Assembly: GCF_003018115.1 (NCBI RefSeq)
Contig: NZ_CP027457.1
Strand: one strand, 5' to 3'
DNA: 64,000 nucleotides
From: Escherichia coli
Lineage (GTDB): Bacteria; Pseudomonadota; Gammaproteobacteria; Enterobacterales; Enterobacteriaceae
The stretch's first letter is position 1. Each line of letters starts with the position of its first letter. Position numbers and translations under genes: made by a program. The notes below the pieces were generated by a model, which worked only from the letters and a program-made list of their open reading frames with translations, did no database searches and was not told the origin of the DNA. Positions 14,986 through 38,933 of this stretch are shown piece after piece.

Positions 14986-15343
14986 GAGTCAGACAACGAA
15001 GTGAACATCAGGATGATGACACTTCTGCAGGACACACCAGGATGGTGTTTCAGGGAAAGGCTTCTGGATGAAGCGAAGAGGATGACGCAGGACGCGTTAA
15101 AGGACACCTCCAGGATGGAGAATGAGAACCGGTCAGGATGATTCGGTGGGTCAGGAAGGCCAGGGACACTTCAGGATGAAGTATCACATCGGGGTGGTGT
15201 GAGCAGGAAGCAATAGTTCAGGATGAACGATTGGCCGCAAGGCCAGAGGAAAAGTTGTCAAGGATGAGCAGGGAGCAACAAAAGTAGCTGGAATGCTGCG
15301 AAACGAACCGGGAGCGCTGTGAATACAGTGCTCCCTTTTTTTA
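14986..15343 (+). ncRNA. csrB: CsrB small RNA (CsrA-sequestering)
   Basis: ORF-free segment with about 18 CAGGA(T/A)G / AGGA motifs spaced 10-25 nt apart, ending in hairpin GGAGCGCTGTGAATACAGTGCTCCC plus T8 (15311-15343); lies between syd and yqcC. Confidence 0.9.
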
Positions 15344-15387
15344 TTCCTGCTATCCTTCGCGGCAGTTTTTCTTATTGAGGTTGCTTT

Positions 15388-15717
15388 ATGACCACTCATG
15401 ACCGCGTTCGTCTCCAGTTGCAGACGCTTGAAGCGTTACTGCGTGAACATCAGCACTGGCGAAACGATGAACCCCAGCCGCATCAATTTAATAGTACCCA
15501 ACCGTTCTTTATGGACACCATGGAACCACTGGAGTGGTTGCAGTGGGTGCTGATCCCGCGAATGCACGATTTGTTAAATAACAACCAGCCGTTACCGGGC
15601 GCTTTTGCCGTTGCTCCCTATTATGAAATGGCGCTGGCGACGGACCATCCGCAACGCGCGCTTATTCTGGCTGAGTTGGAAAAACTGGATGCTCTTTTTG
15701 CGGATGATGCGAGCTAA
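15388..15717 (+). CDS. yqcC: DUF446-family protein
   Basis: 109-aa ORF; synteny csrB-yqcC-truC. Confidence 0.8.
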   Translation: MTTHDRVRLQLQTLEALLREHQHWRNDEPQPHQFNSTQPFFMDTMEPLEWLQWVLIPRMHDLLNNNQPLPGAFAVAPYYEMALATDHPQRALILAELEKLDALFADDAS

Positions 15718-16499
15718 TGCTGGAAATACTCTATCAGGATGAATGGCTGGTTGCGGTAAATAAACCCTCCGGCTGGCTGGTTCACCGCAGCTGGCTGGAT
15801 CGCGACGAGAAAGTAGTGGTCATGCAAACCGTGCGTGACCAGATAGGCCAGCATGTTTTTACTGCTCATCGTCTGGACCGACCCACTTCTGGTGTGTTGT
15901 TGATGGGATTATCCAGCGAGGCCGGACGGCTGCTGGCACAACAGTTTGAACAGCACCAAATCCAGAAACGTTACCATGCGATTGTGCGCGGCTGGTTGAT
16001 GGAAGAAGCGGTGCTGGATTATCCACTGGTGGAAGAACTGGACAAAATCGCTGATAAATTTGCCCGCGAAGATAAAGGCCCGCAGCCAGCAGTGACGCAT
16101 TATCGCGGTCTGGCGACCGTAGAAATGCCGGTAGCGACCGGACGTTACCCGACCACGCGCTACGGCCTGGTGGAACTGGAGCCGAAAACCGGACGCAAAC
16201 ATCAGCTTCGCCGACATCTTGCCCATTTGCGTCATCCGATTATTGGCGATAGCAAACATGGCGATTTACGCCAGAATCGCAGCGGTGCTGAGCATTTTGG
16301 CCTTCAGCGCTTAATGCTGCATGCCAGTCAGTTGTCATTGACGCATCCTTTTACTGGCGAGCCGCTGACTATTCACGCGGGCCTGGACGACACCTGGATG
16401 CAGGCGTTATCACAATTTGGCTGGAGCGGTCTGCTTCCTGAAAATGAAAGGGTTGAGTTCAGTGCGCCATCGGGTCAGGATGGAGAGATAAGTTCCTAA
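15717..16499 (+). CDS. truC: tRNA pseudouridine(65) synthase
   Basis: 260-aa [27 protein letters not shown]..., RluA-family motif HRLDRPTSG. Confidence 0.9.
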
Positions 16500-16516
16500 T
16501 CCAGGGAGAAAACGGT

Positions 16517-16966
16517 ATGGCGGAAATTGGTATTTTTGTCGGCACCATGTACGGAAATTCGCTGTTAGTGGCGGAAGAAGCAGAAGCAATTCTGACCGCA
16601 CAGGGCCACAAAGCAACGGTATTTGAAGATCCTGAATTAAGCGACTGGCTGCCCTATCAGGATAAGTATGTTCTGGTGGTTACGTCCACGACCGGGCAGG
16701 GCGACCTTCCTGATAGCATTGTGCCGCTCTTTCAGGGAATCAAAGATAGTCTGGGCTTCCAGCCGAATCTGCGTTATGGCGTGATTGCGCTCGGCGACAG
16801 CAGTTATGTAAATTTCTGCAATGGCGGCAAACAGTTCGATGCCTTGTTGCAGGAACAGAGCGCTCAGCGGGTTGGCGAAATGCTGTTGATTGACGCCAGT
16901 GAGAACCCGGAACCGGAAACGGAATCAAATCTGTGGGTCGAACAGTGGGGCACGCTGTTGTCCTGA
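16517..16966 (+). CDS. yqcA: flavodoxin-like protein
   Basis: 149-aa [26 protein letters not shown]... Confidence 0.85.
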
Positions 16967-17019
16967 TATGTTCAGCGAGCGGTAAATGTCGTTTTAGCGG
17001 TGCTGAATCGAATCTTTTC

Positions 17020-17074
17020 AGGCAAATGCCAGTAAAAACTGCTTCATAGCGCGGATTTTTACTGGCGTTTGCCT
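17020..17074. other. long inverted repeat (19-bp stem AGGCAAATGCCAGTAAAAA / TTTTTACTGGCGTTTGCCT, 17-nt loop)
   Basis: Read directly; 54 bp downstream of yqcA stop; no adjacent T-run on either strand. Confidence 0.6.
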
Positions 17075-17400
17075 GGAGTCAAGCGATCCATTTCATACTC
17101 TTCTTTATTTCTTCGTTTTAACCCTTCCTTTCTTGTTCTTGTTTTCATTTCCGTGAAGTGGATTCCACCGTCCAGGGCTAATGCCAAAATCGGGCCTCAT
17201 TGAACGCATTAATGTTGTGTTGTTGCACGGTGAGCCGCTATGGCGCGCTTTTTATACTGCTATTGCCAGATATAAACACGCGCCGTATTCGGCGAACGAC
17301 CTATAAAAACGGCAAAAAACACCCTACGTCACCTCTGATTTCCTGGCGATGTCGCAGTCCAGAGTGAGCGTGGCTAACGCGAATTTTCAGGAGTGCAACA

Positions 17401-18753
17401 ATGAGTTCTTTAAGTCAGGCTGCGAGCAGTGTGGAAAAACGCACGAATGCTCGTTACTGGATAGTGGTGATGTTGTTTATCGTCACATCCTTCAACTACG
17501 GCGACCGCGCTACGCTTTCTATTGCCGGTTCGGAAATGGCCAAAGATATCGGCCTTGATCCCGTGGGAATGGGCTATGTGTTCTCTGCCTTCTCATGGGC
17601 TTATGTTATCGGGCAGATCCCTGGTGGTTGGTTGCTGGATCGTTTTGGTTCAAAACGCGTCTACTTCTGGTCGATCTTTATCTGGTCGATGTTTACCTTG
17701 CTGCAAGGCTTCGTCGATATCTTTAGTGGATTCGGCATTATCGTTGCCCTGTTTACGCTGCGCTTCCTGGTCGGGCTTGCTGAAGCGCCATCTTTCCCCG
17801 GCAATAGTCGCATTGTTGCGGCCTGGTTTCCGGCGCAGGAAAGGGGAACGGCGGTGTCGATTTTTAACTCCGCTCAATACTTCGCAACGGTGATCTTCGC
17901 GCCGATTATGGGCTGGCTGACGCATGAAGTGGGCTGGTCACACGTCTTTTTCTTTATGGGCGGTCTGGGCATTGTCATCAGCTTTATCTGGTTGAAAGTC
18001 ATCCACGAGCCAAATCAACATCCGGGTGTAAATCAGAAAGAGCTGGAGTACATCGCCGCGGGTGGCGCGCTGATCAATATGGATCAGCAAAACACCAAAG
18101 TTAAAGTGCCGTTCAGCGTGAAGTGGGGGCAGATCAAACAGCTGCTCGGGTCACGGATGATGATCGGCGTTTATATCGGTCAGTACTGTATCAACGCCCT
18201 GACTTACTTTTTCATTACCTGGTTTCCGGTTTATCTGGTGCAGGCGCGTGGGATGTCGATTCTGAAAGCGGGATTTGTGGCTTCCGTTCCGGCGGTTTGC
18301 GGTTTTATCGGCGGTGTGCTGGGTGGGATTATTTCCGACTGGCTGATGCGCCGCACGGGATCGCTGAACATTGCGCGTAAAACACCGATCGTAATGGGCA
18401 TGTTGCTGTCGATGGTGATGGTGTTCTGCAACTACGTCAACGTTGAGTGGATGATCATCGGCTTTATGGCGCTGGCCTTCTTCGGTAAGGGCATCGGGGC
18501 GCTGGGTTGGGCAGTAATGGCAGATACCGCGCCAAAAGAGATCAGCGGTCTTTCCGGTGGCCTGTTCAACATGTTCGGTAACATTTCTGGCATCGTCACG
18601 CCAATCGCAATTGGTTATATCGTTGGCACGACTGGCTCCTTTAATGGGGCGCTCATTTATGTTGGTGTTCATGCCTTAATCGCGGTACTGAGCTACCTGG
18701 TGCTGGTGGGCGATATCAAGCGTATCGAGCTGAAACCTGTCGCGGGGCAATAA
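17401..18753 (+). CDS. gudP: glucarate/galactarate transporter (MFS)
   Basis: 450-aa membrane ORF preceding gudX-gudD. Confidence 0.88.
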
Positions 18754-21580: not shown

Positions 21581-21615
21581 GTAGGCCGGATAAAGCGTTA
21601 ACGCCGCATCCGGCA
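21581..21615. repeat. REP element (GTAGGCCGGATAAAGCGTTAACGCCGCATCCGGCA) with a second REP-like copy around 21512-21547
   Basis: Matches enterobacterial REP palindrome consensus. Confidence 0.6.
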
Positions 21616-21688
21616 TAAACACAGACACTTTGTCACCAATCTGAAACCTGCTTCATAAAAAGCCGATTGCTACTCGACAAGACGTCCA

Positions 21689-38663: not shown

Positions 38664-38711
38664 AAAAAAAAGAGAAAAGTAAGCCTCCCTTTCAGGTGGA
38701 TTACTTTTCTC
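38664..38711 (-). terminator. leader intrinsic terminator about 25 nt upstream of the yqcE start (11-bp stem GAGAAAAGTAA / TTACTTTTCTC, 18-nt loop, T8 on minus strand)
   Basis: Perfect inverted repeat 38672-38682 / 38701-38711 with A8 at 38664-38671 on plus strand. Confidence 0.6.
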
Positions 38712-38833: not shown

Positions 38834-38886
38834 TTAGCAGTTATGTCCTTATGCTAAAAATTATCTCCAGTTACCAGAGATAATGA

Positions 38887-38933
38887 GAAAGGTAACTTCC
38901 CTCTCGCGGGGGAAGTTACCTTTCTTTTTTTTT
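38887..38933 (+). terminator. leader intrinsic terminator 24 nt upstream of the ygcW start (15-bp perfect stem GAAAGGTAACTTCCC / GGGAAGTTACCTTTC, 8-nt loop, T9)
   Basis: Read directly; sits between the putative promoter and the ygcW RBS (GGAG 38946-38949). Confidence 0.7.

Follow-up and report, generated by a model that had tools for sequence, protein, structure and literature searches.

Stable stem-loops that lack a U-tract and have a rut region directly downstream are known both to mark the 3′ ends that Rho-terminated transcripts have at steady state and to protect them (Dar and Sorek 2018, PMC6061677). In mRNA 3′ UTRs, an A-rich motif located 5′ of a terminator hairpin commonly pairs with the U-tail (Stein et al. 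2020, PMC7367173). Here we describe a long hairpin between yqcA and gudP of Escherichia coli that shares features with each of these classes. Based on its structure and on comparison across genera, it is most likely an ordinary 3′-end stem-loop that was lengthened in Escherichia, rather than a protein operator or an element of a novel kind. The hairpin is unannotated, although the kind of element to which it belongs, the 3′-end stem-loop, is already known.

The window analyzed is a stretch of 64,000 nucleotides of E. coli DNA, which is identical here to the chromosome of K-12 MG1655. Anchored at the 3′ end of csrB, position x of the window converts to 2,939,510 − x in U00096.3 (minus strand), which places the hairpin at U00096.3 2,922,436-2,922,490. 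It starts 53 nt beyond the end of the yqcA stop codon (16966), and the gudP ATG (17401) is 327 nt 3′ of it. The hairpin thus follows yqcA, which ends a co-directional cluster, and precedes the conserved control region of gudP, as would suit an element that forms a transcript 3′ end. The coordinates of all features are collected in table 1.

Table 1. Genes, hairpin segments and conserved blocks around the yqcA-gudP intergenic region, in window positions
Feature	Position	Strand	Sequence, basis or remark
csrB	14986-15345	+	Rfam
yqcC	15388-15717	+	Local gene order
truC	15717-16499	+	Local gene order
yqcA (flavodoxin)	16517-16966	+	ORF list and RefSeq annotation of the identical K-12 region; last gene of yqcC-truC-yqcA
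Block A	17003-17013	+	CTGAATCGAAT; conserved 3′-UTR block; outer imperfect arm of the palindrome 17004-17090
Hairpin arms and loop	17020-17038, 17056-17074; 19-nt arms, 17-nt loop	+	AGGCAAATGCCAGTAAAAA / ctgcttcatagcgcgga / TTTTTACTGGCGTTTGCCT
Hairpin 5′ arm	17016-17038	+	Basal extension 17016-17019; A5 tract 17034-17038
Loop region	17039-17055	+	4-bp apical stem CUGC/GCGG, −2.8 kcal/mol; 8-nt loop; A bulge 17055
Hairpin 3′ arm	17056-17078	+	T5 tract 17056-17060; basal extension 17075-17078
Block B	17078-17098	+	GTCAAGCGATCCATTTCATAC; invariant columns in the alignment; most conserved block beside the hairpin
Pyrimidine-rich, G-poor tract	17087-17150	+	Candidate Rho loading (rut) region by composition
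Block C	17142-17156	+	TTTTCATTTCCGTGA; invariant in 24 intergenic regions; gudP upstream regulatory region
gudP	17401-18753	+	ORF list, RefSeq annotation; downstream co-directional regulated gene; gudX next

The initial annotation described an unusually long hairpin at 17020-17074 with a 19-bp stem, one G-U pair and a 17-nt loop, and the sequence bears out each part of this description. Positions 17027 and 17067 are T and G, which form the single G-U pair in + strand RNA, and the palindrome is the longest inverted repeat of the window and ranks first (repeat I1) among all of them; by our own estimate, the chance expectation for such a repeat in 64 kb is ∼1e-3. The minimum-energy helix predicted by RNAfold is longer still, extending over 17016-17078 with 23 pairs and, beyond a bulged A at 17055, a 4-bp apical stem (17039-17042/17051-17054), for a total of 27 bp. 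Folded as + strand RNA, positions 17012-17082 (71 nt) reach −40.3 kcal/mol (z = −8.6) and positions 17000-17095 (96 nt) −45.5 kcal/mol (z = −7.4), and none of 200 dinucleotide shuffles matches the folding energy of the hairpin. The − strand RNA is weaker (−38.3 kcal/mol, z = −5.6). Imperfect outer arms, 35 nt long and 77% complementary, extend the palindrome to 17004-17090.

The absence of a flanking T-run, also noted initially, holds for the flanks, as the sequence 3′ of the full stem is GGAGTCAAGCGA and contains no T-run within 12 nt. The T5 inside the 3′ arm had been overlooked, however, and it faces the A5 of the 5′ arm. The accompanying view that this is not a typical intrinsic terminator agrees with a consensus terminator scan of the + strand from 16400 to 17500, which calls none. 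The stem that precedes T5 is the apical CUGC/GCGG of just 4 bp rather than a GC-rich stem, and no U-tract (at least five of eight) starts 0-2 nt past the stem, T5 being part of the 3′ arm. Furthermore, conserved pairing (ACnGGCGUUU) extends 3′ of the U-tract and would be missing from RNAs that end there, so that a simple intrinsic-terminator reading is incomplete.

What the locus does contain is a stable stem-loop without a U-rich tail (−40 kcal/mol, z = −8.6), followed directly by RNA that is rut-like in composition, that is, G-poor with more C than G. Positions 17078-17155 are 77% pyrimidine, at the 99.99th percentile of 78-nt windows in the 64-kb window, with 10% G (0.7th percentile), 26% C and a C/G ratio of 2.5; the tract is T-rich rather than C-rich. 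Although the sequence of the tract is itself unconserved, C exceeds G in 26 of 28 compared regions. An earlier suggestion of a role in RNA stability or in Rho-associated pausing is plausible on these grounds. We also considered a conserved small ORF spanning the 3′ arm, block B and block C and rejected it, since the open frame differs by genus and length differences of 1 nt and 10 nt break it; frames are open on the + strand only because the tract is pyrimidine-rich.

Published maps of transcript ends do not list the hairpin. The Term-seq tables of Adams et al. (2021) have no curated 3′ end between 2,914,915 and 2,924,161, possibly because the operon is too weakly expressed, and the Rho tables of the same study list no Rho region in this interval. 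Neither yqcA nor gudP is mentioned in the TERMITe and SMRT-Cappable-seq supplements or in a tiling-array study. The missing transcript end counts against a 3′-end role, although low expression may account for it.

Of 5426 complete E. coli genomes, all but one (5425) carry the intergenic region (434 bp) and, within it, the hairpin region (96 nt), each at a single locus; a second matching place per genome was read as the palindrome matching itself on the reverse strand. The hairpin locus carries no annotation in E. coli genomes. In the E. coli region, Rfam covariance models match the hairpin at chance level only (E > 4), with csrB upstream as the sole real match, and in the intergenic region of five other genera they find no family. 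From the single copy and the lack of an Rfam match, we conclude that the hairpin is neither a dispersed repeat nor a described RNA family; a dispersed repeat or MITE, which requires multiple copies, was rejected on the same count in 5425 genomes. Single-nucleotide polymorphisms in the sampled E. coli sit in the flank or the loop and the arms are invariant, and across six Escherichia lineages 25-27 of the 27 pairs are retained, with changes mostly to G-U.

Several rearrangements and repeats were observed along the way. E. coli EC6563 (L087) lacks gudPXD; its yqcA is still followed by the hairpin, block B and a portion of the pyrimidine tract, and this stretch is joined to a REP-containing segment beside barA. 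In E. coli 2014C-4135 (L086) a breakpoint lies immediately 3′ of the hairpin. Elsewhere in the window there is a REP-like palindrome at 21582-21617, and the repeat scan found two further inverted repeats at ∼38.7-38.9 kb (38672-38711, 38886-38925), one a perfect pair of 16 nt whose arms are 8 nt apart and the other, close by, a pair of 17 nt.

For comparison across genera we used 80 yqcA loci from species-representative genomes and 75 metagenome loci, with subsets of 24 aligned intergenic regions and, for the hairpin region, 29 homologs. Several lines of evidence from this set suggest an ancestry for the Escherichia hairpin. A T-run begins 22-23 nt before block B in 22 of the 29 homologs, which is the position of T5 in E. 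coli, and in Citrobacter, Superficieibacter, Salmonella and Raoultella it follows a GC hairpin (−4.6 to −8.8 kcal/mol) in the + orientation and comprises T5-T7. The E. coli counterpart of that GC hairpin is the apical CUGC/GCGG. Because the orthologous positions carry a short GC hairpin and T5-T7, the Escherichia element descends from a terminator-like stem-loop. Judging from the homologs, the ancestor was probably a short GC hairpin with an A-tract on one side and, on the other, a U-tract able to pair with it; in Escherichia the U-tract has come to lie inside the stem of a 27-bp hairpin. Additionally, most genera other than Escherichia have a GC hairpin, GCCCTCCC...GGGAGGGC, right after the yqcA stop, and Escherichia is without it.

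Base pairing has been maintained through sequence change. RNAalifold yields no consensus structure across all 29 homologs. When the E. coli structure is imposed on them, 67.7% of positions are paired versus 29-48% in slid controls, and restriction to the 22 sequences with a hairpin raises the paired share to 79.4% of cells, where slid partner columns give 31-51%. Compensatory changes are seen among these 22 at columns 32-64 (AU in 8, CG in 5, UA in 4, UG in 1) and 33-63 (GC in 13, GU in 3, CG in 2), the CG cases at the latter coming from a metagenome-variant arm pair, GCCCCTAAAAA/TTTTTAGGGGC. The helix shared across genera comprises ∼15 bp, AAAUGCCnGUAAAA with UUUUACnGGCGUUU, and the basal pairs 17016-17024/17070-17078 are found only in Escherichia. 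G·U pairs outnumber A·C pairs by 99 to 49 (∼2:1), an excess that favors + strand RNA over a DNA cruciform or − strand RNA.

Close relatives, in which loss of the dyad had been named at the outset as grounds for doubt, have conserved it. The long hairpin is nevertheless not universal, which argues against a 3′-end role. Fold z scores run from −7.3 to −8.6 in Escherichia and from −4.5 to −5.3 in Citrobacter and are about −3 in Superficieibacter; they are not significant in Salmonella (−0.8), Kosakonia, Phytobacter, Silvania and Raoultella, and inspection by eye of the Klebsiella-like metagenome variants found no hairpin. The apical GC stem has dwindled in Escherichia to 4 bp, with 5-7 pairs gained at the base. 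The change of the 3′ arm from the Citrobacter form TTTTCATAGG to the Escherichia form TTTGCCTGGA involves four substitutions, all of which create pairs. Three of the four lie together in 5 nt, where TCATA has become GCCTG and exactly complements the CAGGC of the 5′ arm. This pattern fits either selection for a longer stem or a template switch at a quasi-palindrome.

The hairpin is embedded in an array of conserved blocks. In many lineages where gudP follows yqcA, the order is block A (ACTGAATCGnGTTAGC), block B (GTCAAGCGAnnnnnTTCACACTC), block C, the invariant, promoter-like TGCACGGTGAG and CTTTTTATACT, and gudP, and the E. coli hairpin sits between blocks A and B. Block A is conserved in about 21 of the 80 yqcA loci. 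Blocks A and B lie 74-76 bp apart (66 bp in Salmonella) and blocks B and C 71/72 bp apart, except for three loci (L032, L042, L121) with 61/62 bp; no other spacing was seen even though the metagenome search pattern permitted gaps of 30-50. The larger length changes amount to ∼9-11 bp, namely 10 bp in the Salmonella hairpin loop and the shorter B-C gap of the three loci; indels of ∼10 bp would keep the helical phase, and the sequence between the blocks is poorly conserved. The center of the palindrome varies in sequence and is constant in length, and blocks A and B persist in lineages with a degraded hairpin. In 63 of 64 metagenome loci yqcA lies upstream of the module. In Enterobacter and the Citrobacter freundii group gudP is present and blocks A and B are absent. 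Lineages without gudP beside yqcA fall in clades already devoid of the module, and the comparison favors neither gudP nor yqcA as the gene that the module accompanies. Together, the length-locked blocks hint at a constraint on gudP regulation at the DNA level, which the RNA model leaves unexplained.

Block B in other genera has CRP-like half-sites, AGCGA-N6-TCACA, of which GCGA and TCAC are invariant and the 6-bp spacer is variable. In the homologs L007-L081 and L088-L162 its invariant G.GA-N6-TCAC (GTCAAGCGAnnnnnTTCACA) fits the CRP core GTGA-N6-TCAC at seven of eight positions, and the right half-site in E. coli is weaker (TCATA). A literature search found nothing linking CRP to gudP, and likewise nothing relevant for gudT with sRNA. 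On the − strand, a candidate promoter TTGACT-16-AAAAAT (17082-17055) has a conserved −35 and a CRP-like site at about −41.5, which is speculation; it was rejected given that the −10 T is unconserved outside E. coli and no − strand terminator follows.

Further observations concern the gudP upstream region and leader. Both TTGCACGGTGAG and CTTTTTATACT (17224-17258) are invariant across genera, and the garP upstream region (L082 10116-10153) contains TTGCACAATGA and CTTATACT. These pairs may represent a CdaR site and a −10 element common to the two regions, in which case transcription of gudP would start near 17265 and its leader would be ∼135 nt long. The leader contains a hairpin, GCCG...CGGC (17280-17311), that encloses GGCGAACGACCU and is replaced in other genera by GCAGC...GCUGC in an apparent compensatory change, and the consensus scan places a − strand terminator-like site at 17294-17281 in the same leader. 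Outside Escherichia, the ∼100 nt after the yqcA stop (TGCCAGTAAGCA...AACGACC...) repeat motifs of the gudP leader of the same species, with lineage-specific matches (L007, L022, L046, L056, L071), and local alignment of the two gives shuffle p values of 0.003-0.03 in four of nine species. This likeness suggests either an old partial duplication or shared binding sites. In Escherichia most of this yqcA-proximal part has been lost.

We considered several other explanations of the hairpin. A neutral origin, by which a template switch at a quasi-palindrome perfected an existing imperfect repeat and added no function to that of the ancestral short stem-loop, would account for the 5-nt patch of pair-creating substitutions complementary to CAGGC and for the confinement of the basal pairs to Escherichia, and it sits well with a transcript end that went undetected in the tables of Adams et al. 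(2021). We regard it as unlikely, given that the extension coincides with the disappearance of two features that other genera keep, the apical GC stem and the GC hairpin next to the yqcA stop, which looks like compensation, and that the arms do not vary in the sampled E. coli and hold 25-27 of 27 pairs in six Escherichia lineages. The stem could instead be a processing site. Substrates of E. coli RNase III usually span about two helical turns, and the 27-bp stem, a near-continuous duplex of at least ∼20 bp (23 + 4 bp with one bulge), is longer than this; cleavage of read-through RNA would separate or destabilize the yqcA and gudP transcripts, and the conserved pairing 3′ of the U-tract does imply a role in RNAs that run beyond it. 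We nonetheless judge such putative cleavage to be very unlikely, the helix being shorter or interrupted in most genera.

The block spacings raise the alternative that the palindrome and blocks A and B form a phase-locked control region upstream of gudP, with protein sites that include the CRP-like one in block B, and that the symmetry reflects paired binding sites or an incidental overlap. The narrow set of A-B and B-C distances, a palindrome center that changes in sequence and not in length, the survival of blocks A and B where the hairpin has degraded, and the invariant GCGA/TCAC around a variable 6-bp spacer all point in this direction. We still find it rather improbable, in that the arms change complementarily between genera (A:T, T:A, C:G; G:C to C:G), as independent half-sites need not, and the G·U excess points toward RNA. 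A half-site separation of ∼30 bp is atypical of a dimeric regulator, the gar promoters of the same regulon lack a similar dyad, and Enterobacter and the C. freundii group manage gudP without blocks A/B. A broader form of the idea, to which we assign a low probability, makes the hairpin the center of a length-locked functional module of ∼160 bp, acting either as a phase-dependent nucleoprotein complex for gudPXD, with the CRP-like site of block B by a structure-prone palindrome, or as a structured RNA derived from the 3′ UTR whose single-stranded block A acts in trans; this module may have arisen via partial duplication of the gudP leader. The initial proposal of a CdaR (SdaR) operator did not survive comparison with the garD-garP regulatory region, where the dyad is absent and no gud word of at least 9 nt recurs, and the arms keep their complementarity, not their sequence, between genera. 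The four 8-mers that gud and garD-garP do share are at chance level (∼5 expected), and the similarity of gud and gar sits at the promoters (TTGCACnnTGA, TATACT), away from the dyad. Membership of a dispersed or mobile family (REP/BIME, ERIC, MITE) would suit an intergenic palindrome whose imperfect outer arms resemble terminal inverted repeats. One locus per E. coli genome, the lack of an Rfam match, and synteny across genera, including yqcA upstream in nearly every metagenome locus, leave this family and the CdaR operator alike with hardly any likelihood.

We favor the hypothesis, at roughly even odds, that the hairpin is an RNA 3′-end element of the yqcC-truC-yqcA transcripts that serves as insulator and as exonuclease barrier (stabilizer), with weak intrinsic and/or Rho-dependent termination. 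RNA polymerase exiting yqcA would transcribe the hairpin, and the internal U5 may release a minority of complexes. The remaining complexes would enter 17087-17150, where Rho could load on the untranslated RNA and terminate transcription upstream of the gudP promoter. We infer that 3′-5′ exonucleases would then trim the RNA to the base of the hairpin (∼17075-17080) and that the yqcA mRNA would thereby be protected. Overall, the mRNA would gain a defined 3′ end, and the tightly regulated gudPXD promoter would be insulated from read-through. Structure, conservation, compensatory changes, strand bias and tract composition are observed, and termination, the part played by Rho, trimming and insulation are deduced from them.

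If this 3′-end hypothesis is correct, the element is routine operon punctuation: the yqcA mRNA gets a protected end, and constitutive upstream transcription is kept out of the glucarate-inducible gudPXD promoter. It would also be a natural example of a terminator-like stem-loop remodeled inside one genus, with the apical stem lost and the base extended, possibly by a quasi-palindrome template switch. The study of the hairpin points as well to an unannotated and strongly conserved control region upstream of gudP.

Among described elements, the yqcA hairpin resembles the class of Dar and Sorek (2018, PMC6061677) in being stable, free of a U-tract beyond its stem, located at the end of a transcription unit, and adjoined by a G-poor region with more C than G. 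It differs from that class in that a mapped 3′ end and a bicyclomycin-sensitive region are not reported for it, in a tract that is T-rich and not C-rich, and in a stem that contains an internal A5/U5 from a terminator-like ancestor. With intrinsic terminators of the bidirectional type (PMC7367173) it shares an A5 that faces a T5 around an apical hairpin, and its orthologs have a GC hairpin and T5-T7 in the same register and orientation, whereas the hairpin that precedes the U-tract in E. coli has only 4 bp and −2.8 kcal/mol. Unlike canonical terminators, the E. coli element has a further 14-18 bp of pairing beyond the U-tract and gives a negative consensus scan. Finally, it is similar to the REP/BIME stabilizers of mRNA 3′ ends in being an intergenic palindrome downstream of a gene and a possible block to exonucleases, but it is single-copy and unrelated in sequence to REP, and the REP-like palindrome of the window looks different.
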